Shown piece by piece: positions 24,931 to 54,634 of a DNA stretch of 64,000 nt. The DNA lies in NCBI GenBank assembly GCA_934096105.1, contig CAKOLH010000001.1, positions 13,178-77,177 on the forward strand, in the 5' to 3' direction. Position 1 is the first letter of the stretch. Each line of letters begins with the position of its first letter. The position numbers and the translations under genes are program-made. A model generated the notes under the pieces. It saw only the letters and a program-made list of their open reading frames with translations, made no database searches and was not told the DNA's origin. Origin of the DNA: an uncultured Bacilli bacterium. GTDB lineage: Bacteria > Bacillota_I > Bacilli_A > RF39 > UBA660.

Positions 24931-25686
24931 ATGGAAAAAATAAAAGTTTTAATGATTGATGATAATGTTAATTTAGTGGAGATGGTTAAGGATTATTTTG
25001 AGAATCATCCTAAGATTGAAATTGTTGGTAGTGCTAATGATGGAATGGAAGGGTTGAATATTATTAAGGAAGGTAAACTTAAATATGACCTTATTGTACT
25101 AGATTTGATTATGCCAAAGAAAGATGGGATGGGTGTTCTTAAAGAATTAAAGGATTCTAATATTGCTTCTAATGTGATTGTGGCTACTTCTTATAATGCT
25201 CCTGATACGATAAGGAAGGTTAGTGAATATGGGGCTAATTATTATATACTTAAGCCTTTTGAACTTCCTGACTTAGAAGAGAAGATACTGGATACTTTTA
25301 ATACTAATAAGAGTAAGAGTATTAATCTTATTAGTAATAATCTGCAGATATCTATTAGTAAGATGTTACATGAACTTGGTATGCCATCACATATTAAGGG
25401 ATATCAATATATTAGGGAGGCTATTTCAATGGTATATGATAATCCGGAGATAGTAGGAGGTATTACTAAGGAATTATATCCTACTTTGGCTGGTAAATTT
25501 GATACTACTGTATCGAGAGTTGAAAGGGCTATTAGGCATGCTATTGAGGTATCTTGGAATAGAGGTGACTGGGATTTGATGGAAGAGGTATTTGGTCATA
25601 GTGTGGATATTGATAAGGCTAAACCTACTAATTCGGAGTTTATTGTTACGGTAGCGGATAAACTTAGACTTGAATATGTTAGATAA
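24931..25686 (+). CDS. spo0A: Sporulation master response regulator Spo0A
   Basis: Receiver domain (DDN...DLIMP). Diagnostic C-terminus [18 protein letters not shown]...[20 protein letters not shown]. Confidence 0.95.
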
Positions 25687-32677: not shown

Positions 32678-33517
32678 TTACTTAGTTCCTATTTTATTTA
32701 TTCTATAAAAGTTTATTGATGGTTTATTAAATAATCTAAAGTTTATCTTTGATTCTCCTAGTCCACTAGAAATATAGAGGTTGGTATTATTTACTTTATA
32801 ATAATTATTATAGTATTTTTTACTACCTTCAGGTAGAAATAATTTCTTTATATATGGTATATTTATTTGTCCATTATGAGAATGTCCTGCTAGTACTAGG
32901 TTTATATTATCATATTTAGAAGTTATTGTATCTATATAATCTGGTTCATGGACTAGTATTATTTTATAATTTATATCTTCATTATCAGTAAAGTAATTCA
33001 TTACTTTATCTATATCTGGATTATTACTTAGTCCTCCTATGAATAACTTGTTATTATTATTTCCATATATTATATCATAACTATTATCTAATAGAGTAAA
33101 GTTACTACTTATATATATATCTTTAATAGTATCTTCTACTTTAATATCATGTTCTCCTAGTACGGAGTATTTACCATATTTACTTTTAATACTAGTAAGT
33201 AATTCTTTTAAATTACTTATATCTTTATCATTAGGTTTATAGTCTTTATCTATTAAATCTCCGGTAAATACTACAATATCTGGATTTAATAGATTTATTT
33301 CTTCTATTATACTTTGAGTAGTTTCTTTATTTGTTATTCTAAGATAATGTAAATCACTAAAGTGAACTATTTTTAGTCCATCAAAACTATCATCAATAGT
33401 GGTTTCAATTGGGTATTCTTTGGTTATTAATCCTCTTGTACCTCCATATCTAGCATATATTATGAGTAATGATAGTATTAATATTATTATTAATAAGAAT
33501 CTTATTAGCTTTTTCAT
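32678..33517 (-). CDS. Membrane-anchored metallophosphoesterase (YkuE/calcineurin-like)
   Basis: IVHFSDLH, FTGDLID, LGEHD, ILVHEPD, LAGHSHNGQ. Confidence 0.8.
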   Translation of the reverse strand: MKKLIRFLLIIILILSLLIIYARYGGTRGLITKEYPIETTIDDSFDGLKIVHFSDLHYLRITNKETTQSIIEEINLLNPDIVVFTGDLIDKDYKPNDKDISNLKELLTSIKSKYGKYSVLGEHDIKVEDTIKDIYISSNFTLLDNSYDIIYGNNNNKLFIGGLSNNPDIDKVMNYFTDNEDINYKIILVHEPDYIDTITSKYDNINLVLAGHSHNGQINIPYIKKLFLPEGSKKYYNNYYKVNNTNLYISSGLGESKINFRLFNKPSINFYRINKIGTK

Positions 33518-34206
33518 AATGATGCTCCTAGTAAGACTAGTAATGATGCTAGAAGATTATGGATACTATGCATAGTAATTGATGAGAAGATATTATCTGT
33601 CTTATAATATAATAGGGCAAAGGCTATACCTAAGGCTGAATATGGTATTAAATATATGATATCACTAAATGTTTCTATATAACTAGCAACATGTAATGAA
33701 CCAAATATTAGACCACTCATGATAACAAATACCCATTTACTTGGAAATATTTCTTTAAAACTTTTTCTAAATGTTAATTCTTCATTAATTGGAGCACATA
33801 TAGCGGCATCAAATGTCATAAGTAGTGGTAATGTTATTAGATAATTTCTTACTGTTTCTTCATTACCCGCTAATTGTTTATTTAGAACAAAGGTTATGAA
33901 TAGATTACTTATGTACATTACTGCAAGACCTGCTAACCAATATTTAAATGATACTTCAAAGTTATTTTTAAAGTTTTTGAAATAGGATTTTAAATCTTTA
34001 AAGAAATCTTTTCTATATATTGTAATTAATATTATACTTAGTGTTAAACTTGATATGGTATAATAGATTACATAATCTTTACTAGTTATGTTATTTATAT
34101 CTACATTAAATACTATAAATATTACTGATGGCCATAGGAGCATTAATATTAGTACTCCTGTACTTTTTAATATGTTTAATAATTTTTGTTTCATTTTTAT
34201 TATCAC
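33514..34206 (-). CDS. CPBP-family (CAAX) intramembrane glutamic endopeptidase
   Basis: INEELTFRKSF, FGSLH, HSIHN. Confidence 0.8.
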   Translation of the reverse strand: MIIKMKQKLLNILKSTGVLILMLLWPSVIFIVFNVDINNITSKDYVIYYTISSLTLSIILITIYRKDFFKDLKSYFKNFKNNFEVSFKYWLAGLAVMYISNLFITFVLNKQLAGNEETVRNYLITLPLLMTFDAAICAPINEELTFRKSFKEIFPSKWVFVIMSGLIFGSLHVASYIETFSDIIYLIPYSALGIAFALLYYKTDNIFSSITMHSIHNLLASLLVLLGASL

Positions 34207-36281: not shown

Positions 36282-36337
36282 AACTATAAGAAATTATAGT
36301 TTTTATTGTTTAATGGATATAAAAAAATAGTCAATAA

Positions 36338-36365
36338 TTGACTATTACTTAAACTAGCATATAAT
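36338..36365 (+). promoter_or_regulatory. Sigma-A-type promoter of the toxin mRNA, locus 2
   Basis: TTGACT, 16 nt spacer, TATAAT. Confidence 0.55.
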
Positions 36366-36432
36366 GCTGGTTTTAATTAGTACCTATGGATATTTTTTTG
36401 ATTTTCTATTATCAGAAGAAAGGAGTAATGAC

Positions 36433-36477
36433 ATGCTGAAAAAACTATCTGTAAAGAGGGTTAGTAAATGGAATTAG
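36433..36477 (+). CDS. Upstream mini-ORF MLKKLSVKRVSKWN overlapping the toxin start
   Basis: SD aaaggag. Overlaps the toxin SD and ATG out of frame. The N-terminus is conserved in locus 3. Confidence 0.35.
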   Translation: MLKKLSVKRVSKWN

Positions 36478-36545
36478 TTATAGCGTATGCTTTAACTATT
36501 CTTGTTACCATAGCAGTAATAGTGCTAGGTAGCCATAGAAAATAG
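36468..36545 (+). CDS. Candidate type I toxin, 25 aa: MELVIAYALTILVTIAVIVLGSHRK
   Basis: Differs by one residue from the peptide at 15311..15388. Not in the ORF track because of its size. Confidence 0.6.
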   Translation: MELVIAYALTILVTIAVIVLGSHRK

Positions 36546-36548
36546 ATT

Positions 36549-36652
36549 AAAAAAATCAGAGCGCCTCAGTGGGTCGTTCTGATAACTTAAGTTTGAAGAG
36601 AACACCTCGCAAATAGATGTTAGCCATTTTATTATGGCTAATTTCTCCTTCT
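36549..36652 (-). ncRNA. Candidate antitoxin antisense RNA, locus 2
   Basis: Minus-strand promoter TTGCAT, 17 nt spacer, TATAAT (36659-36687). Terminator atcagaacgacccactgaggcgctctgat plus T7, ending next to the toxin stop. Confidence 0.55.
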
Positions 36653-36658
36653 GTATAC

Positions 36659-36687
36659 ATTATATGTTATTTTAATAAAAAATGCAA
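36659..36687 (-). promoter_or_regulatory. Promoter of the locus 2 antisense RNA
   Basis: TTGCAT, 17 nt spacer, TATAAT on the minus strand. Confidence 0.55.
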
Positions 36688-36799
36688 TAGATATGGTTAA
36701 AAATGTATATTATCGTACAAATGTTTTGCACCTTAAAATCTTGTAAAACCTTTGTTTATAAGGCTTTATAAAGATATTAAAAAAATAGTCATATTTTGC

Positions 36800-36829
36800 T
36801 TGACTACGATATTCAAATTAGTATATAAT
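36800..36829 (+). promoter_or_regulatory. Sigma-A-type promoter of the toxin mRNA, locus 3
   Basis: TTGACT, 18 nt spacer, TATAAT. Same leader as locus 1. Confidence 0.6.
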
Positions 36830-36931
36830 GTTGGCGTGGTTAATACTTATGGTGTTCTCTCCAATTTTCTGTTATGGAAGAAAGGGGTGATGATATGCTG
36901 AAAAAACTATCTGTAAAGGGGGTTTTAGTAA

Positions 36932-37006
36932 GTGGAATTAGTTCTTGCTTTTGCATGGACTACTCTAATTGTACTGTTTTTAATAGACAGTTGCAATCGT
37001 AGATAG
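36932..37006 (+). CDS. Candidate type I toxin paralog, 24 aa (GTG start): MELVLAFAWTTLIVLFLIDSCNRR
   Basis: Homologous frame and MELV N-terminus as in loci 1 and 2. SD aaggggg. The GTG start may mean weaker expression or decay. Confidence 0.45.
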   Translation: MELVLAFAWTTLIVLFLIDSCNRR

Positions 37007-37105
37007 AAAAAGGGCACCCAGGGGGTGCTCTATACCAAAATATAGAGAGAAACACCTTACTAAAATAGGTGTTAACCATTTTTATTATGGTTATTTTCTC
37101 TTCAT
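37007..37105 (-). ncRNA. Candidate antitoxin antisense RNA, locus 3
   Basis: Minus-strand promoter TTGATT, 17 nt spacer, TATAAT (37112-37140). Terminator agagcaccccctgggtgccc plus a T run, abutting the toxin stop. Confidence 0.55.
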
Positions 37106-37111
37106 ATATAC

Positions 37112-37140
37112 ATTATATGCTATTTTTAATAAAAAATCAA
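37112..37140 (-). promoter_or_regulatory. Promoter of the locus 3 antisense RNA
   Basis: TTGATT, 17 nt spacer, TATAAT on the minus strand. Confidence 0.55.
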
Positions 37141-37272
37141 TAATATTTACAAATTATAGACTACTTGGAGGCTATAATTTGCCAAGAAAGACTTTGGCTT
37201 TCTTGGAAAGGAAAAGTATTGATATAATTATAGTTTTATTGTATAATTTTATTATGATAGGAGGATTTGAAT

Positions 37273-38355
37273 ATGATACTTAGAAGGCCTTATGCTTTTT
37301 TAATAAAACATTTTAGATTAATACATTTAATATTATTTACTCTACTGGCAATTATTACATATAATGCTAGTACAGTACTTAATTTCTTTAAAGACTATAT
37401 AATCAATAATGGAAATATGGAGATATTATCTTCTAATTATATTAATGTATTTATATATATTGCTCCAATTATTATTATTGGTTTATCTATTTTGATATTT
37501 TATCTTATGAAATATAAAGATAAACCTAGGTTATATTATATTATTTTAATTATAGTTAGTATACTTTGTACGGGAGTATATACTTATTTATATTTAAATA
37601 TTAGGTCTTTAGAAACTACTACTGTTAGTGCTAGAATAATTAGATTATATAGAGATATAGCAAGGTCTAATTTTTATGTATTATTTGTTATGTGTATACC
37701 TACTTTAATAAGAGGACTTGGATTTGATATTAAGAAGTTTAATTTTAGTAAGGATTTAAAAGAATTAAATCTAAGTGAAGAAGATGGTGCTGAAGTAGAA
37801 GTTAGTATTGATGTATCTAGTAATGGTCTAAAGAGAACTGGTAGAAGAACTCTTAGAGAACTTAAGTATTATTATGTAGAAAATAAATTTTTTATTAATA
37901 TAATTCTTGGTACTTTAATACTTATTTTAATTATGGTATTTCCTTTTAATAAATATGTTGTTAATAGAAATTTAAAAGAAGGTGAAGTACTTGGTACTAG
38001 TGCATTTAATATAAAGGTTACTGATAGTTATCTGACTGATAGAAAGAGAATTAGTAAAGATAATAGTTATGTAATACTTAAAGTTAGTGTAATTGGTAAG
38101 GTAAATAAATATTCTTTGGATTTAGACCATTTTGTTTTAGAGGGTAAGAATAATAAATATGTTCCAAGTCAGAAGTTTTATTTATATTTTAATGATATTG
38201 GAACAGGATATAGAAATAATATATTAGATACTACTAGTTATAAAGATTATATTTTAGTATTTAATATAAATAATATTGATAAAGATTCTAACTTTATATT
38301 TAGGTATGTAGATAATGATAGGGGTATTAAATTATCTCCTGAAGTAATTTATTAA
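37273..38355 (+). CDS. Polytopic membrane protein with a C-terminal extracytoplasmic beta-sandwich-like (DUF4352-like) region
   Basis: Five hydrophobic helices, then NIKVTDSYL...YVILKVSVIGK...HFVLEGKNNKY. RBS aggagga, ATG at 37273. Confidence 0.5.
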   Translation: MILRRPYAFLIKHFRLIHLILFTLLAIITYNASTVLNFFKDYIINNGNMEILSSNYINVFIYIAPIIIIGLSILIFYLMKYKDKPRLYYIILIIVSILCTGVYTYLYLNIRSLETTTVSARIIRLYRDIARSNFYVLFVMCIPTLIRGLGFDIKKFNFSKDLKELNLSEEDGAEVEVSIDVSSNGLKRTGRRTLRELKYYYVENKFFINIILGTLILILIMVFPFNKYVVNRNLKEGEVLGTSAFNIKVTDSYLTDRKRISKDNSYVILKVSVIGKVNKYSLDLDHFVLEGKNNKYVPSQKFYLYFNDIGTGYRNNILDTTSYKDYILVFNINNIDKDSNFIFRYVDNDRGIKLSPEVIY

Positions 38356-38398: not shown

Positions 38399-38459
38399 GG
38401 CTATAAATAATCTATTTTGGTTATAAATTAATAATTTTTGGTAATAATTGAATAATTTT
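38395..38459 (+). promoter_or_regulatory. Three tandem direct repeats spaced 20-21 bp apart, upstream of the bacteriocin-export operon
   Basis: TTTTGGCTATAAATAAT / TTTTGGTTATAAATTAAT / TTTTGGTAATAATTGAAT, starting at about 38395, 38415 and 38436. Confidence 0.5.
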
Positions 38460-38526
38460 AAAGAAATTTTCAAAATTATGGCAAAATCGTATATTAATTC
38501 TTGTATATAAGTATGAAGGGAGTAAA

Positions 38527-40587
38527 ATGAAGAAAGATTTAATTGTACTACAAGAAGGAAATAAGGATTGCGGAGCAGCCTCTCTTTTATCTATCATTCG
38601 TTATTATGGAGGTGATATTTCTTTAGATAGATTAACAGAGATGACTAAAACAACAAAAGAAGGGACTAATTTTTATAATTTAAGTGAGGCATCATCTAAA
38701 CTAGGACTAATGGCTAAATCATATAAGGCAAGTGATGTTAGTCAAATAAAGGAGGTTAAATGTCCATATATTGTTCAGCTTAATAATAAGAATTATATGC
38801 ATTTTGCTGTTATATATAAATTATATGAAGATAAGGTATTAATGATGGATCCTGCAGTAGGTAAAGTTACAATGGATATGTTTGATTTTACTAATATGTG
38901 GACAGGCTATTTAATGCTTTTTGAAAAAGTAAAACCTATTTCAGTAATCACTAGTGATAAAAAATTAATGAAGATGATATGGCTAGTATTATTTAATAAT
39001 AAAGGTATTATTGTATTCTTAACTATATTGTCATTATTAATTACTTTATATTCTATAGGAACATCTTTTTATTCACAAATTATTTTTGATAAGATAATAA
39101 ATACTGAAGTAAATAATTTAATTATAATTACGATATTCTTTTCTATCTTATATATACTTAAAAATATTAGTAATTATGTTAGAAATTACTTAATTATTTA
39201 TTTAAATCAAAAAATAGATATTAGTATCATTCTTAGTACATTTAGTAATATTATTTTACTTCCCTTCACATTTTATCAAGGAAAGACTTCGGGTGAAGTA
39301 TTATCTAGAATTAATGATTTATCACACTTTAAAATATTTATATCTAGAATTATAGTTACTATATTTTTAGATATTATAGTATTTATTACATCTTTTATTA
39401 TTATATATTTTATTAAGAGAGAATTTATTATGTTAATTATTATTATGCTTATAGTATATATATTAATTATACTAATATTTAATCCAATAATAAAAAGAAT
39501 TAATATTAAAAATCAGATGAATAATGAACTAGTTAATAATGATATAATAGAGTCTACTAAATCATTTGAAACTATTAAAAATCTTAATATTCAAGATAAT
39601 ATTATATTAAAGTTTGAGAAGGATTATAATAAGTTAATTGCTACTTCATATTATGGTGAGAAAATTAATAATATTCTTTTATTACTTAAAAGTTTACTTG
39701 GTGATTTAGGATTATTAGTACTTAATTTTATTTGTTTTAGATTTATTATGAAGAATAATTTAACTATGGGTAATTATATGACTATAACACTACTATTTAA
39801 TTATATATTATCACCAATTGATAATTTTATATCTTTACTTAATGAGTATCATTTTGTTAAGAATAGCATTAGAAGAGTAAATGATTTACTTGATGCGGAC
39901 AAAGAAATTATTGCAGATAATAAACTAGAATTAAATGGTAATATTGAAGTTAGAAATTTATCTTTTACTTTTAATAATAAATATTATCCTCTTAATAATG
40001 TTAATTTATCTATTAAGAATGGAGAAAGAGTACTTATACTTGGTGAATCTGGTATTGGTAAGTCCACTTTATTAAGATTAATTTATAAGTATTATGATAT
40101 AGATAGGGGACAAATATTTATTAATGGTTATGATATTAATGATTATACTTTAGCGGATATAAGAAAGAACATAACATATATTTCACAAAATGAAATGTTA
40201 TATACAGATAGTATTAGAAATAATATTATACTTGATAGAAATATTTCAGAGAATGATTTTTTGAATGTATGTAAAATGACTTATGTAGATGAGATTATTA
40301 AAGATAATATATTAGGTTATGATTATATTACCGAAGAGAATGGTAGTAATCTTTCAGGAGGTCAAAGACAAAGAATAATACTAGCCCGAGGTCTTTTAAA
40401 AAATAGTAAAATAATAATGATAGATGAAGGATTGAGTCAAATTGATATTAAGTTAGAGAGAATTATTTTAGAAAATTTATTTTGGACATATCAAGATAAA
40501 ACTTTTGTAGTGGTATCACATAGAGAGAATAATACTGATTTATATGATAAAGTTATTAGACTAAGAGGTAAAAATAATGATAGATAG
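38527..40587 (+). CDS. Bacteriocin-processing ABC transporter with an N-terminal C39 cysteine peptidase domain
   Basis: C39 motif QEGNKDCGAASLLSI with downstream His (YMHFAVIY). Six TM helices. Walker A GESGIGKST, signature LSGGQRQR, Walker B IIMIDEG. Confidence 0.9.
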   Translation: MKKDLIVLQEGNKDCGAASLLSIIRYYGGDISLDRLTEMTKTTKEGTNFYNLSEASSKLGLMAKSYKASDVSQIKEVKCPYIVQLNNKNYMHFAVIYKLYEDKVLMMDPAVGKVTMDMFDFTNMWTGYLMLFEKVKPISVITSDKKLMKMIWLVLFNNKGIIVFLTILSLLITLYSIGTSFYSQIIFDKIINTEVNNLIIITIFFSILYILKNISNYVRNYLIIYLNQKIDISIILSTFSNIILLPFTFYQGKTSGEVLSRINDLSHFKIFISRIIVTIFLDIIVFITSFIIIYFIKREFIMLIIIMLIVYILIILIFNPIIKRINIKNQMNNELVNNDIIESTKSFETIKNLNIQDNIILKFEKDYNKLIATSYYGEKINNILLLLKSLLGDLGLLVLNFICFRFIMKNNLTMGNYMTITLLFNYILSPIDNFISLLNEYHFVKNSIRRVNDLLDADKEIIADNKLELNGNIEVRNLSFTFNNKYYPLNNVNLSIKNGERVLILGESGIGKSTLLRLIYKYYDIDRGQIFINGYDINDYTLADIRKNITYISQNEMLYTDSIRNNIILDRNISENDFLNVCKMTYVDEIIKDNILGYDYITEENGSNLSGGQRQRIILARGLLKNSKIIMIDEGLSQIDIKLERIILENLFWTYQDKTFVVVSHRENNTDLYDKVIRLRGKNNDR

Positions 40588-41011
40588 TAGAATTATTTTA
40601 AATAGAAAGATTAGACCTTTAGTATATATTTATATAATGATATTAATAATATGTGCACTTTCCTTAATTATAGTATGTATGTTATTTCATTATAAAGAAT
40701 ATTACTTTTTTAAAGGTACTGTTACTGAAGAAGAGAATAGTTATTATTTAAAATGTTATATACCAATATCTGAGACAAAGTATATTACTTTAAATGATAC
40801 TTTGACAACTGATAAGAAAACATATAAGTATAGTATTAAGAGTATCAGTGAGGAATACTTTAGTGATAATAATGATACTTATCAAGAAGTAGTTCTTAAT
40901 ATAAATCTTGATAATAAGTATAGGTATAATAATTTGGTATTAAACTTAAAACTATTAAAAGAAGATAAAATGGTAATAGAATATTTAAAGGAATTAGGAG
41001 GTATAAAATGA
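40577..41011 (+). CDS. Small single-TM protein in the export operon (minimal accessory or immunity candidate)
   Basis: N-terminal TM helix LVYIYIMILIICALSLIIVCMLF. Overlaps the ABC gene stop and the first peptide gene start. Confidence 0.45.
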   Translation: MIDSRIILNRKIRPLVYIYIMILIICALSLIIVCMLFHYKEYYFFKGTVTEEENSYYLKCYIPISETKYITLNDTLTTDKKTYKYSIKSISEEYFSDNNDTYQEVVLNINLDNKYRYNNLVLNLKLLKEDKMVIEYLKELGGIK

Positions 41012-41166
41012 CTGAATTAAAAAAAGAAGAAATGTTAAATATTAATGGTGGAGCTAATGCAATTTTAATTACAACAATTATTGGAACAGTAATAACTTTT
41101 ATAGTGGGAACACTTAAAGGCTATTCTAATCCAGAAAAATGTAATGTATTAGGAGGTAAAAGATGA
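41008..41166 (+). CDS. Double-glycine-leader peptide 1 (class II bacteriocin-like precursor), 52 aa
   Basis: MTELKKEEMLNINGG / ANAILITTIIGTVITFIVGTLKGYSNPEKCNVLGGKR. SD aggagg. ATGA overlaps on both sides. Absent from the ORF track. Confidence 0.75.
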   Translation: MTELKKEEMLNINGGANAILITTIIGTVITFIVGTLKGYSNPEKCNVLGGKR

Positions 41167-41330
41167 GAGAATTAGATAAAAATGAGATGTTAAAAATAGA
41201 TGGCGGAGCAGGTTTTACTGCCACGATGATGAATGCAATATATAAAACTATTGAGATTATTTTTAATATAGGTGAAGCCTTTGGAAGTTATATCAGAAGG
41301 AAAAGTGAAGATAAAATGTGTGATTTTTGA
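41163..41330 (+). CDS. Double-glycine-leader peptide 2 (class II bacteriocin-like precursor), 55 aa
   Basis: MRELDKNEMLKIDGG / AGFTATMMNAIYKTIEIIFNIGEAFGSYIRRKSEDKMCDF. SD aggaggt. Confidence 0.75.
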   Translation: MRELDKNEMLKIDGGAGFTATMMNAIYKTIEIIFNIGEAFGSYIRRKSEDKMCDF

Positions 41331-41431: not shown

Positions 41432-41638
41432 ATGTCAGCAGGAACTAAAATAACCGTTGGTGTTAGAAATAATGATGTTGAATTTGCTTTAAGAAAATTT
41501 AAGAATCAAGTAGCACGTAATGGTAATCTCTCTAAAGCTAGGGAAAGAGCAGATGGATTTAAGTCTAAAGGATTTAAAGAAAGAGAAGAAAAAAAGAAAA
41601 ATACTATTAATTCTAGAAAAAATAAAAGAAATTACTAA
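41432..41638 (+). CDS. rpsU: 30S ribosomal protein S21
   Basis: VRNNDVEFALRKFKNQVARNG and a basic tail. Conserved rpsU-yqeY order. Confidence 0.85.
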   Translation: MSAGTKITVGVRNNDVEFALRKFKNQVARNGNLSKARERADGFKSKGFKEREEKKKNTINSRKNKRNY

Positions 41639-42091: not shown

Positions 42092-42155
42092 TTTCTCTTT
42101 TTTGTATTGAAAAGTATATTTATTTTTTATATAATACTTTTAGGTGGGACTAATT

Positions 42156-42761
42156 ATGAGTAAAATAACTAATACAATTTTAATGATAAAATTATTATCA
42201 AATGGTAGAGTATATTCAGTTAAAGAATTAAGTGAAGAACTTGGTGTTACTGAGAGAATGGTTAGATATTATAAAGAACAGTTAGAAATTGCTGGATATA
42301 TTATTGAATCTTTTAAAGGTCCTGGAGGCGGCTACTACATAAATAAGAATGATATGATTGATATAGATTACTTTAATAAGTATGATTTAGAAGTATTAGA
42401 TAAAGTACAAAGTGAGATATCTACTTCAGATAATGATAAACTTATTAAAGACTATACAGAACTAAACAAGAAACTTCATTCTATTTATAATACTAATAAG
42501 GTGTTATCGGAGTATAAAGATATTAATGTAGTTGTAAATGGTGCTGATGATAAAATAAACACAATAAATGATTGTATTAAAAATAAGAAGAGTATATTTA
42601 TTGATTATCTTGGTTCTTCAGGAAAAATAGTAAAAAGAGAAATTATACCAATAAATATATTTGAATTTGAAAATAAAATTTATGTTTTAGCCTTTTGTAA
42701 ATTAAGAGGATCAATTAGGCACTTTACTTTGAGTAAAATACTAAATATAAAAGAAATATAG
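42156..42761 (+). CDS. HTH plus WYL-domain transcriptional regulator
   Basis: N-terminal wHTH YSVKELSEELGVTERMVRYYKEQLEIAGYIIES. C-terminal WYL-like IFIDYLGSSGKIVKREIIPINIFEFENKIYVLAFCKLRGSIRHFTLSKI. Confidence 0.7.
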   Translation: MSKITNTILMIKLLSNGRVYSVKELSEELGVTERMVRYYKEQLEIAGYIIESFKGPGGGYYINKNDMIDIDYFNKYDLEVLDKVQSEISTSDNDKLIKDYTELNKKLHSIYNTNKVLSEYKDINVVVNGADDKINTINDCIKNKKSIFIDYLGSSGKIVKREIIPINIFEFENKIYVLAFCKLRGSIRHFTLSKILNIKEI

Positions 42762-42846
42762 AATAGACAATATATTTCCTTGTATTAAATTAAAAAGACT
42801 TAATATTTCCTGAATTGGTAATACAATATTTTTAGGAGGAATAAAT

Positions 42847-44181
42847 ATGAATATAAAAGATAAGGCTAAAGAGTTTGCAATCAATGCACATAAAGGACAG
42901 ATAAGAAAATCGGATAAAGAAAAACCAATGATAATACATCCTATAAATGTTGCTGATATTTTGAGTGAATATGGTTTTGATGATAATGTAGTGTCCGCAG
43001 GATATCTTCATGATGTAATTGAGGATACTAAGTATACTAAAGAGGATTTATTAAAAGCATTTAATGAAGATATATTATCTTTAGTACTTGGGGATACAGA
43101 AAAAGACAAAAGTTTAAGCTGGGAAGAGAGAAAAATAGAAACTATAAATATTGTAAAAAATTTAGATTTAAGACATAAATCTATAGTATGTGCTGATAAA
43201 ATAAGTAATTTAGAAGATATGAGAATTATTTTTGAAACTAGAGGAGAAAAAGACTTTTCGGCATTTAAAAGAGGGTATGAAAAACAAAAATGGTATTATA
43301 CAGAAGTATATAATAGTTTAATATGTAATGAAGATAAGAACTATCCAATGTTTGTTAGATTAAAATTATTAATTGATGATGTTTTTGATAATAATAAGCA
43401 TGATGACTTAGAAAGAAAAATATTTGAAGGTAGGGAAGAAGAATATAGTAAATTAATAAAACTACATTATAAGAAACAAGAAATATATAAAATGATGAAA
43501 GTATTAAATAATAAGTTTACATATGTTATAGAATTTACTGGTACTCCGAGAACTGGTAAGACTACGCTTATAAATAATTTATATGATTTCTTTAAAAAAG
43601 GTAAATTTAAAACTAAAGTACTTGAAGAATTTACTACTTCCCAAAGATATAAGAAAGAAATATATCCAAGATTAAAGAATGAATATAAAAATGTAATAAA
43701 TACAGAGATACCTAAATATGTTTTAAATGATTTAAATGATACAATAAATAAGAACTATGATGTTATAATAATAGACAGATCATTATTTGATAGGATGATT
43801 TGGATGGATAGATTATATAGTAAAAATGGTGTATCTAAAGAAGAATATGATAATTATATAAATGAATATGTACCTATTATTAAAAATAAAATTGATATTG
43901 TAATAGGAACTTATACCGATAGTTTGACTTCTTTAAGAAGAGATTACACTGCTAATGTAGCATTAGAAAAAAGAACTTTCTTAAGCGAAGATAATGTTAA
44001 TGAATATAATAATTCTTTATTAAATATGAAGTTACTTGCAGAAAAAGAAAATATTAATTTTTATATGTTTGATACCACTAATAAGAGTGAAAGAGAGATA
44101 TCTTTTGAAGTAGTAGATACTATTCTTAATAATATGAGAACATACTATATAAATAAATTAAATGAAGGATTTAATAAATAG
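42847..44181 (+). CDS. Fusion: RelA/SpoT-type HD (p)ppGpp-hydrolase-like domain plus C-terminal P-loop dNK-like kinase domain
   Basis: HD half: AHKGQIRKSDKEKPMIIHPINVA...AGYLHDVIEDT...CADKISNLEDM. Kinase half: Walker A GTPRTGKTT, IIIDRSLFDR (dNK-type D/E-R-S), Arg-rich lid LRRDYT..EKR. Confidence 0.65.
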   Translation: MNIKDKAKEFAINAHKGQIRKSDKEKPMIIHPINVADILSEYGFDDNVVSAGYLHDVIEDTKYTKEDLLKAFNEDILSLVLGDTEKDKSLSWEERKIETINIVKNLDLRHKSIVCADKISNLEDMRIIFETRGEKDFSAFKRGYEKQKWYYTEVYNSLICNEDKNYPMFVRLKLLIDDVFDNNKHDDLERKIFEGREEEYSKLIKLHYKKQEIYKMMKVLNNKFTYVIEFTGTPRTGKTTLINNLYDFFKKGKFKTKVLEEFTTSQRYKKEIYPRLKNEYKNVINTEIPKYVLNDLNDTINKNYDVIIIDRSLFDRMIWMDRLYSKNGVSKEEYDNYINEYVPIIKNKIDIVIGTYTDSLTSLRRDYTANVALEKRTFLSEDNVNEYNNSLLNMKLLAEKENINFYMFDTTNKSEREISFEVVDTILNNMRTYYINKLNEGFNK

Positions 44182-53795: not shown

Positions 53796-53887
53796 AATTA
53801 AAATATGATAAAATAAGACAAAAAGCAATATAATACTTGCTTTTTTATTCTTTTAAGTGTAAACTATTTATTAGGAGGAAGATTGTT

Positions 53888-54634
53888 ATGGCAAATCAAA
53901 GTTCAAAAAATAAAAATACAAAAAAAGTGAATAATAAAGGTGGTCAAAATAAAAATACTAATAAACAAAATGTAAAGAAAGAAGCAGTAAAAAAAGTAGA
54001 TACTAAAGCAAGTGTTAAGAAGGATACTGCTAAAAAAGTAGAAACTAAAAATACTGTACATGAAGAAGTTAAGATAAAAGAAATAGCTCCAAAGGTAGAA
54101 GAAAAAAAGATTGAAAAAGTAGTTAAAGAAAAGAAGAGTTTTTCTCTAACTTCAAAGCAAAAAGATTTAATATTAATTCTTTTAGTAGTAGTTCTTTTAG
54201 TAGTTGCACTATTTGTTACTATGAAAAAGACTCCTAAACTAGATATAGAATTACCAGTAGCTTTAGAGGGAGAAGCAGGATTTACAGAAATTACATATTC
54301 TGAGTATGAAGAAAAAATGAATACTGAAGCTCCATTCTTAGTAGTAATAGTAAGAGATGGATGTGGCTACTGCGAAATGTATGAACCTATACTTAAAGAA
54401 GTAGCAGATGAATATAAACTTCCTATTTATTATATAAATATGACTAATTTAAATAATGATGAGTATACTGCTCTTGGAACATCTAATTCTTACTTAAAGA
54501 AGAACCAAGGTAAATGGGGAACTCCAACTACATTATTTATGTATGGTAGTACAGTAGTTGATTCTATACCTGGATATGTTGATAAAGATAAATTTGTTGA
54601 CTTTGTAAAAGAAAACTTTAAAGTAGAGGTATAA
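53888..54634 (+). CDS. Membrane-anchored thioredoxin-fold protein (CGYC active site) with a Lys-rich N-terminal tail
   Basis: TM helix LILILLVVVLLVVALFVTM. FLVVIVRDGCGYCEMYEPILKEVA and cis-Pro GTPTT. Confidence 0.7.
   Translation: MANQSSKNKNTKKVNNKGGQNKNTNKQNVKKEAVKKVDTKASVKKDTAKKVETKNTVHEEVKIKEIAPKVEEKKIEKVVKEKKSFSLTSKQKDLILILLVVVLLVVALFVTMKKTPKLDIELPVALEGEAGFTEITYSEYEEKMNTEAPFLVVIVRDGCGYCEMYEPILKEVADEYKLPIYYINMTNLNNDEYTALGTSNSYLKKNQGKWGTPTTLFMYGSTVVDSIPGYVDKDKFVDFVKENFKVEV

Follow-up and report, generated by a model that had tools for sequence, protein, structure and literature searches.

Do two very short open reading frames (ORFs) behind a peptide exporter encode a two-peptide bacteriocin, or do they encode something that the producing cell keeps for itself? 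The question is raised by a locus in a stretch of 64,000 nucleotides from an uncultured Bacilli bacterium (GenBank assembly GCA_934096105.1, contig CAKOLH010000001.1, positions 13,178 to 77,177 of the forward strand). The whole of this stretch, hereafter the window, is AT-rich, with a base composition of 27% GC. On its + strand the ORF listing and the raw sequence give four genes in the order ABC, X, pepA and pepB, spanning 38527-41330: an ATP-binding cassette (ABC) exporter with a C39 peptidase domain, a protein X with one transmembrane (TM) helix, and two peptide precursors with double-glycine leaders. The reading somewhat favoured here is that the cassette is composed of an exporter, an accessory protein (X) and a two-peptide bacteriocin of the class IIb type that acts on membranes. 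As a whole, the class IIb reading is supported but not proven.

The two peptide genes

The first peptide gene, pepA (41008..41166, + strand), encodes a precursor of 52 residues in which a leader at 41008-41052 (MTELKKEEMLNINGG) is followed by a predicted mature peptide of 37 residues (41053-41163). The second, pepB (41163..41330, + strand), encodes 55 residues, with a leader at 41163-41207 (MRELDKNEMLKIDGG) and a predicted mature peptide of 40 residues (41208-41327). An AGGAGG Shine-Dalgarno sequence lies 6-8 nt before each start codon, and the start regions of the two genes share 75% identity over 77 nt. Both leaders are double-glycine leaders of 15 residues, with hydrophobic residues at -4, -7, -12 and -15 and a Glu at -8. 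The strict form of this pattern is matched by pepA and pepB only, that is, by 2 of the 254 window ORFs of at least 30 residues.

An earlier interpretation made from the letters alone (the sequence-only reading) had described these two genes of 52 and 55 codons with their Shine-Dalgarno sequences, their leaders, their mature lengths, and the C39-ABC protein and 144-residue single-TM protein that precede them. All of this was found as described, the latter two through Pfam domains and one TM helix, respectively. Its statement that the whole operon is chained by ATGA overlaps is correct for the X/pepA and pepA/pepB junctions; at the ABC/X junction the two genes share 11 nt. The term 'unannotated' needs amendment for public data, where homologues in metagenome-assembled genomes (MAGs) are called 'hypothetical protein'.

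The computed properties agree with the proposed division into one hydrophobic and one amphipathic peptide. Mature A has a grand average of hydropathy (GRAVY) of 0.55, a net charge of +3 and an isoelectric point (pI) of 9.6, and it carries the motifs GTLKG and GYSNPEKC. Mature B reaches a maximum helical hydrophobic moment of 0.57 and carries GEAFG, an IRR motif and C53. The calculated monoisotopic masses are 3874.18 Da for A and 4581.22 Da for B, and a disulfide-linked heterodimer of the two would have 8453.38 Da. There is one Cys per peptide near the C-terminus, as had been noted (C45 of 52 in pepA and C53 of 55 in pepB). In an alignment of 18 pepA orthologues, the GG site, F31, G34xxxG38, P42 and C45 are invariant, and the C-terminal motif takes the form G-Y-S/V-N/R-P-x-x-C. 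Likewise, G37xxxG41, R45 and C53 are invariant among 16 pepB orthologues aligned with three third peptides found downstream of pepB in other lineages. The pair of locus L040, which was added later, retains the GxxxG, the Pro and the Cys. In all lineages aligned, even where identity has fallen to about 30-40%, the GxxxG motifs (G34-T-L-K-G38 in pepA and G37-E-A-F-G41 in pepB) and the single Cys are unchanged.

Pairwise Nei-Gojobori comparisons among six genomes show purifying selection on both frames: the ratio of non-synonymous to synonymous substitution (dN/dS) is 0.10-0.41 in pepA and lies between 0.00 and 0.18 in pepB. Homologues of pepA, pepB and X are found in many gut metagenome contigs and MAGs, and the pepB variant by itself occurs in 202 indexed blocks of the public assembly collection. 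The nearest named genome is that of Clostridium sp. CAG:302, with an X 97% identical to that of the window, and its group corresponds to the GTDB genus CAG-302 (PMC13646880). The supposition that the peptide ORFs are chance or non-functional open frames has nothing but their small size in its favour, whereas over 20 loci keep both frames, the Shine-Dalgarno sequences are intact, the motifs are invariant and dN/dS is far less than 1. These conservation data already refute the supposition, and practically no weight is left to it. That both small ORFs are genuine genes for double-glycine-leader peptides, with the neighbouring C39-ABC protein as their exporter, is well supported.

Some variation within pepA and around it was also observed. 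The tail of the peptide (41143-41163) runs past ...KCN in the CAG:302 group and sister species only, where VLGGKR or TLGGNR is added; elsewhere pepA ends 1-2 residues beyond the Cys. Four metagenome variants of pepA (P0018, P0021, P0016 and P0022) are frameshifted or truncated and have lost the GYSNPxxC tail. Two of the frameshifted ones, P0018 and P0021, lie on contigs of 261 and 81 kb, and some of the variants are represented by several member sequences. Such alleles may be natural inactivations or assembly errors at an A-run. Among the close strains L015-L018 compared with the window, synonymous divergence (dS) amounts to 0.11-0.45 at pepA/pepB and 0.01-0.07 at the adjacent X, with small counts; the higher values at the peptide genes could reflect recombination or allele exchange there.

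The exporter

The ABC gene (38527..40587, + strand) encodes 686 residues that make up a C39 peptidase, a 6-TM and a nucleotide-binding domain, which Pfam recognises as Peptidase_C39 (1e-33), ABC_membrane (1e-32) and ABC_tran (1e-28). Its closest solved relative is PCAT1 (4RY2), matched over the full length with an E value of 6e-104, and the second-best structural relative is solved ComA (2e-81). In the alignment with PCAT1, Q9, C15, H92 and D108 fall in motifs common to both proteins (DCGAA, HF.VIY and DP.G). We take these four to be the catalytic residues, as in PCAT1; with this role assumed, the shared motifs make the C39 protease domain look catalytically competent, not degenerate.

The architecture of protease, TM domain and nucleotide-binding domain, together with the protease motifs, is that of the PCAT/AMS exporter type, but every NCBIfam subfamily score stays below its curated cutoff. 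Against the model for PCAT/AMS bacteriocin exporters (TIGR01193) the protein scores 388.8 bits, with a cutoff of 523.85, and against NF045998, the 'Mbov_0121 family', it scores 316.7 bits, with a cutoff of 500.

Protein X

At every locus read, the gene for protein X (40577..41011, + strand; 144 aa) is found between the ABC gene and pepA. The protein has a basic N-terminus (R5, R10, K11 and R13), one TM helix at about residues 14-36, and thereafter a beta-rich domain in the AlphaFold2 model, which was built from a 75-sequence alignment and has a predicted local distance difference test score (pLDDT) of 92.9. Taken with the positive-inside rule, the basic N-terminus would place the beta-rich domain outside the cell. 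No family match to X was obtained in Pfam, NCBIfam or the PDB sequences. Word-indexed homologue searches for X, pepA and pepB gave close relatives only, and the wider X family was reached solely by an exhaustive profile search, which yielded 343 clusters at E <=1e-3. Essentially all of these are 135-155 residues long, and Pfam covers none of them.

Foldseek searches of the PDB with both X models returned membrane-fusion proteins at the top, namely the beta-barrel domains of BesA, MacA, Spr0693 and MexA, with a probability of about 1, E values of 0.03-0.3 and TM-scores of about 0.4. Like the membrane-fusion or adaptor proteins (MacA, BesA, Spr0693 and the HlyD/LcnD type), X combines an N-terminal anchor with an extracytoplasmic beta-barrel-like domain and is encoded beside an ABC exporter. 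Those proteins, by contrast, possess lipoyl and coiled-coil hairpin domains, and X is about one third of their size; a protein of only 144 aa has no room for these domains. What X shares with the HlyD/MacA families is the beta-barrel-like domain, a weak yet consistent likeness in fold, and it gives no sequence-level match to them. X is regarded, with moderate confidence, as a partner of the exporter that resembles a minimal adaptor.

There are also signs of a more distant kinship. Weak, colinear and near full-length matches to NCBIfam NF045999, the 'MAG1140 family', were obtained for 23 of 75 X relatives, the best with an E value of 6e-6 and examples at 13-15 bits (cutoff 35); the X of the window gave no match to this model. 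Going by these hidden Markov model (HMM) matches, a distant homology between the X family and the MAG1140 gene family of Mycoplasma is possible.

Conservation and inheritance of the cassette

In the sequence-only reading the cassette was a local curiosity, and its breadth had been missed. The search with the X alignment led to 13 species-level genomes, and the loci of 8 much more distant X-family members, 25-37% identical to the X of the window, were examined in addition. The order ABC, X, pepA and pepB occurs in 13/13 of the species-level genomes and is complete in 6 distant lineages (loci L028, L033 and L036-L040), so that it is held in all 19 lineages readable through pepB. In L032 and L041 the contigs stop inside or just past pepA. 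In nearly every locus the genes rpsU-yqeY are situated immediately or closely downstream; in L023 and L024 an insertion of about 1.7 kb comes before them. The only clear exception is L036, with the cassette away from rpsU, and in L027 the contig ends.

Identity to the window ranges from 98% to 36% for ABC, from 97% to 25% for X, from 92% to 35% for pepA and from 98% to 30% for pepB; for YqeY it ranges from 100% to 46%. The cassette is vertically conserved beside rpsU-yqeY across lineages in which YqeY is only 46-58% identical, and its proteins diverge in step with the housekeeping neighbours YqeY and RpsU. The parallel fall of the cassette and housekeeping identities points to a long history of shared vertical inheritance and not to recent transfer, a pattern that bacteriocin loci do not usually show.

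Two observations on the carriers of the cassette may be added. One contig with the full cassette (L027, CAVCHK010000067.1) is labelled 'Paludibacteraceae bacterium' (Bacteroidota), and the other matches are all from Bacilli or 'Tenericutes' MAGs; this contig is probably mis-binned rather than a case of horizontal transfer. Spo0A is encoded in the window (24931-25686) and the sporulation genes SASP, YabP and YqfD are present in related loci, from which these Mycoplasma-related Bacilli lineages appear to be spore-formers.

A full-text search of the literature found neither peptide sequence printed in any searchable paper. Full-text searches on two-peptide bacteriocins with intermolecular disulfides and on Mbov_0121/MAG1140 returned nothing that characterises the peptides or the families. 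The text available from the IIBacFinder gut-bacteriocin atlas is silent on the CAG-302 group. In the sources searched, the invariant Cys pair, the X family and the deep conservation of the cassette next to rpsU-yqeY all appear undescribed.

Function of the peptide pair

The favoured course of events would be as follows. The genes of 38527-41330 form one operon, with translationally coupled junctions and strong Shine-Dalgarno sequences. The C39 domain would cut both 15-residue leaders after Gly-Gly, and the PCAT would export the hydrophobic 37-aa A and the amphipathic 40-aa B. X, with its N-terminal helix as anchor and its beta-barrel-like domain outside the membrane, would most likely assist the exporter. 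Once exported, the two peptides would associate by helix-helix contacts at the invariant GxxxG motifs, probably with an interchain disulfide between the invariant C-terminal Cys of each, and the pair would act on membranes as a two-peptide bacteriocin of the class IIb type. An intermolecular disulfide had been called conceivable in the sequence-only reading. This idea is strengthened by the invariance of both Cys in every aligned lineage, and the bond itself stays a prediction from the alignments. A 265-aa thioredoxin-fold protein (53837-54634; matches to Thioredoxin_2, Thioredoxin and TraF), whose orthologue in L001 has a PedC-like Pfam match, is encoded 12.5 kb from the cassette and is a general candidate only for extracytoplasmic disulfide formation.

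Several traits connect the cassette with class IIb systems. The two peptide genes are adjacent, overlap at ATGA and each carry a canonical 15-aa double-glycine leader; a GxxxG helix-helix motif is found in both peptides; and there is a dedicated ABC exporter with a C39 domain, as seen from the Pfam architecture and the motifs shared with PCAT1. Further, the HMM of the class IIb lactobin A/cerein 7B family (TIGR03949) is matched by 17/18 pepA orthologues, with alignments that cover the leader and most of the hydrophobic Gly-containing core. When ten orthologues were tested individually, five scored above the curated cutoff of 21.5 bits (27.6, 26.9, 28.6, 28.4 and 22.7 bits). Those below it scored 19.6-20.7 bits, and one closest homologue had no match at E <=0.01. 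The pepA family straddles the threshold.

A number of observations weigh against a class IIb bacteriocin. The pepA of the window scores 20.4 bits against TIGR03949, 1.1 under the cutoff, and so falls outside the family as curated. For pepB, searches of Pfam, NCBIfam and the PDB sequences gave nothing past leader-level matches, and mature B is not cationic (net charge 0, pI 6.3). There are no ORFs between the end of pepB at 41330 and rpsU at 41432 and hence no immunity gene in the window operon. An accessory protein of about 450 aa of the LcnD/ComB type is absent from the cassette, whose sole partner protein is the 144-aa X, and X resembles membrane-fusion proteins only weakly in structure (E 0.03 or worse). 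The cassette also occupies one core-genome position, and its peptides diverge no faster than the exporter, which is atypical for antagonism genes. As to structures, no solved relative of mature A or mature B was found. The sequence-only reading had likewise seen neither a typical immunity gene nor a full-length accessory, and the operon ORFs and the X family searches agree with it. Its proposal of a putative two-peptide class II bacteriocin gains from the relation of pepA to TIGR03949 and from the GxxxG motifs, and loses from the missing immunity gene, the missing typical accessory and a locus that is not strain-variable.

Three distant lineages possess a third small gene, encoding 46-53 aa, that overlaps pepB at its end (L037:5738-5878, L038:5770-5931 and L039:5744-5905); it is seen in these three only and is not present in the window. 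Its product has no leader and combines a hydrophobic N-terminal TM segment with a pepB-like C-terminus (G-x-x-x-G-T-x-I-R...C). A leaderless, membrane-anchored, pepB-like peptide after pepB stands in the position expected of an immunity protein, and it is plausible that the gene encodes either an immunity protein or a pepB mimic.

The same observations bear on an opposite view, in which exported A and B form a heterodimer of the producer's own membrane or surface, possibly disulfide-linked, that serves the envelope, cell-cell interaction or sporulation and not killing. The cassette keeps its place upstream of rpsU-yqeY in nearly all lineages and diverges with YqeY and RpsU. It is kept in the genomes of Mycoplasma-related Bacilli orders, which are small and fast-evolving (PMC10868615). 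The window operon holds no immunity gene and the ORFs scanned no regulator pair, the mature motifs are invariant and not diversifying, and the C39-ABC exporters of Mycoplasma are orphans for which the peptide is not known (PMC6609329). Core-genome synteny, the missing immunity gene and the non-diversifying peptides keep this self-directed function alive as an unlikely alternative. It is opposed by the tie of pepA to a curated class IIb bacteriocin family, by frameshifted pepA on long contigs, which suggests dispensability, and by L036, where the cassette has moved off rpsU. Moreover, we know of no housekeeping double-glycine peptide pair. The class IIb assignment of pepA and its frameshifted alleles together favour a dispensable competitive function. 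A bolder form of the self-directed view would make ABC-X-pepA-pepB an ancient vertical module of Mycoplasma-related Bacilli (the CAG-302 genus and deeper uncultured gut lineages), with a disulfide-linked heterodimeric membrane peptide serving the producer as its product, in place of a conventional bacteriocin, and X as a new minimal PCAT adaptor family; this is less probable still. If it were true, the C39-ABC 'orphan' exporters of Mycoplasma could be accounted for in the same way.

Signalling is another function for which double-glycine peptides are known, and the sequence-only reading had set a match to a signalling-peptide family against its own proposal. The leader type and the exporter class are the same as in ComAB and its competence-stimulating peptide, and ComA is related to ABC at E 2e-81. 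Pheromones of the ComC, BlpC or PlnA type are nevertheless disfavoured by mature peptides of 37-40 aa, one of them transmembrane-like (GRAVY 0.55) with a GxxxG, by the presence of two peptides instead of one, by a promoter without conserved direct repeats, and by the finding of no histidine kinase or LytTR regulator among the ORFs scanned at about 24.9-62.2 kb, where Spo0A is the sole response regulator. A pheromone function is accorded very little probability. For X there is a separate alternative, which leaves the rest of the favoured reading unchanged, namely that it is an immunity protein, or combines immunity with an accessory function, and is not an export helper. X is the sole membrane protein of the cassette that is co-inherited universally, the dedicated third small gene is present in just three of the lineages examined, and the likeness of X to membrane-fusion proteins is a weak one. 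On the other hand, the position of X directly after the ABC gene and overlapping it would be typical of accessory proteins, and the class IIb immunity proteins known to us are multi-TM or CPBP-type, never a single TM with a beta-barrel. Immunity is considered a rather doubtful role for X, and the preferred reading remains that of an exporter with an adaptor-like partner and a class IIb-type peptide pair.

Regulation and neighbouring genes

The putative operon promoter and leader (38456..38526, + strand) consist of an A/T element, an extended -10-like box and a Shine-Dalgarno sequence. The A/T element TTTTAAAGAAATTTTCAAAA lies at 38456-38475, the extended -10-like box TGTATATAA at 38502-38510 and the Shine-Dalgarno sequence GAAGGGAG at 38515-38522. 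In an alignment of 15 orthologous upstream regions, AAGAAATTT, TTGTATATAA and the Shine-Dalgarno sequence are conserved in the nearer lineages. The A/T element containing AAGAAATTT stands about 55-70 nt ahead of the ABC start codon and is followed by the extended -10-like box TTGTATATAA; both elements are kept in lineages with proteins only about 50% identical. Direct repeats (TTGGT) upstream of ABC, as in LytTR-type regulation, are not conserved in sister species, and regulation of this type through them was rejected for that reason. The sequence-only reading had noted no sensor/regulator pair, and indeed no histidine kinase/LytTR pair is encoded among the ORFs scanned at about 24.9-62.2 kb, in which the regulators seen are Spo0A, the only response regulator, and a WYL protein. 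Downstream, rpsU begins 100 nt after pepB and has its own TG-extended promoter.

Two membrane proteins near the cassette were considered for immunity. A CPBP/Rce1-like (Abi-type) intramembrane protease of 230 aa (33514..34206, - strand; Pfam Rce1-like 2e-16), overlooked in the sequence-only reading, is encoded 7 kb upstream on the other strand, separated from the cassette by four unrelated genes, and is only a remote candidate for an immunity factor. A multi-TM protein of 362 aa (37267..38355, + strand) forms a separate transcription unit immediately upstream and has no family match in Pfam, NCBIfam or PADLOC. It adjoins the cassette in the CAG:302 group and in L019, L020 and L023, but L021, L022, L024, L025 and the deep lineages lack it there. 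As it is unlinked in distant genomes, it was dropped as an immunity or accessory candidate.

Further upstream, at 36320-37150, a module resembling type I toxin-antitoxin systems occurs twice in tandem, each copy measuring about 455 nt. Each copy has a strong + strand promoter (36338-36365 and 36800-36829) and a tiny hydrophobic ORF, at 36468-36545 (MELVIAYALTILVTIAVIVLGSHRK) and 36932-37006 ((V)ELVLAFAWTTLIVLFLIDSCNRR). In the second copy the - strand also bears a convergent promoter (37140-37112) and a terminator (37028-37014), the latter overlapping the 3' end of the ORF. The region gives no Rfam match, is strain-variable and is missing from sister species. On the other side of the cassette, between yqeY and a short-chain dehydrogenase/reductase gene, 42144-44181 encodes a WYL/helix-turn-helix regulator (PADLOC WYL, 9e-23) and a protein with HD_4 and AAA_28 domains. 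This slot is strain-variable: it is empty in L001 and L011, and elsewhere it holds 2-3 extra genes, one of which encodes a protein with a PfkB domain. The slot may be a defence or variable island.

Significance and comparison with known systems

If the peptides are active, they would represent a bacteriocin of class IIb type in a human-gut genus that is uncultured yet widespread. It would be unusual in two respects, namely its probable interchain disulfide and its accessory of 144 aa, which belongs to an undescribed family with several hundred clusters. The synteny at rpsU-yqeY poses the question of whether a double-glycine pair can be a core, lineage-defining trait as opposed to an accessory weapon. 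The cassette may also serve as a template to seek the substrates that are still missing for the C39-ABC exporters of Mollicutes. The object of such a search would be a peptide of about 46 aa ending in G.xxP..C, followed by one of about 55 aa with G...G..IRR...C.

The Mycoplasma Mbov_0121/MAG1140 pair resembles the window cassette in that a C39-ABC protein and a partner are found in AT-rich Bacilli related to Mollicutes. Membership in these families cannot be assigned at the curated cutoffs of 500 and 35 bits, below which the window ABC and the X-family scores fall. The C39-ABC exporters of Mycoplasma are long-standing orphans, for which double-glycine peptides are not known (PMC6609329). The weak MAG1140 and Mbov_0121 matches suggest the cassette as a template for re-examining them.

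Among solved exporters, PCAT1-CtA of Clostridium thermocellum (4RY2) and ComAB are comparable; as in the window, the double-glycine-leader cargo of PCAT1-CtA is encoded beside the exporter. The cargo peptides are unrelated to A and B, and to our knowledge neither solved system includes a partner protein of the X type. The lactococcin G/enterocin 1071 type (NF038034 and NF038035) shares with the window two peptides, an ABC exporter and the concept of GxxxG-mediated pairing. Its HMMs score 19.2 bits in the window against a cutoff of 37, and this match is largely leader-driven. That type has a LagC-like immunity gene, which the window operon lacks, and we know of no counterpart in it of the two Cys residues.

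The closest comparison is with the lactobin A/cerein 7B class IIb family (TIGR03949), which likewise has adjacent, co-transcribed double-glycine genes, GxxxG motifs and a C39-ABC exporter. In contrast to that family, the window cassette has an invariant C-terminal Cys in each peptide, no immunity gene, an accessory of 144 aa rather than about 450 aa, and a pepB without recognisable relatives. Moreover, its locus belongs to the core genome, keeps its synteny in deep lineages and is not strain-variable. On present evidence the cassette would work like a class IIb system, to which it is related through pepA, and it is filed as a variant of it.

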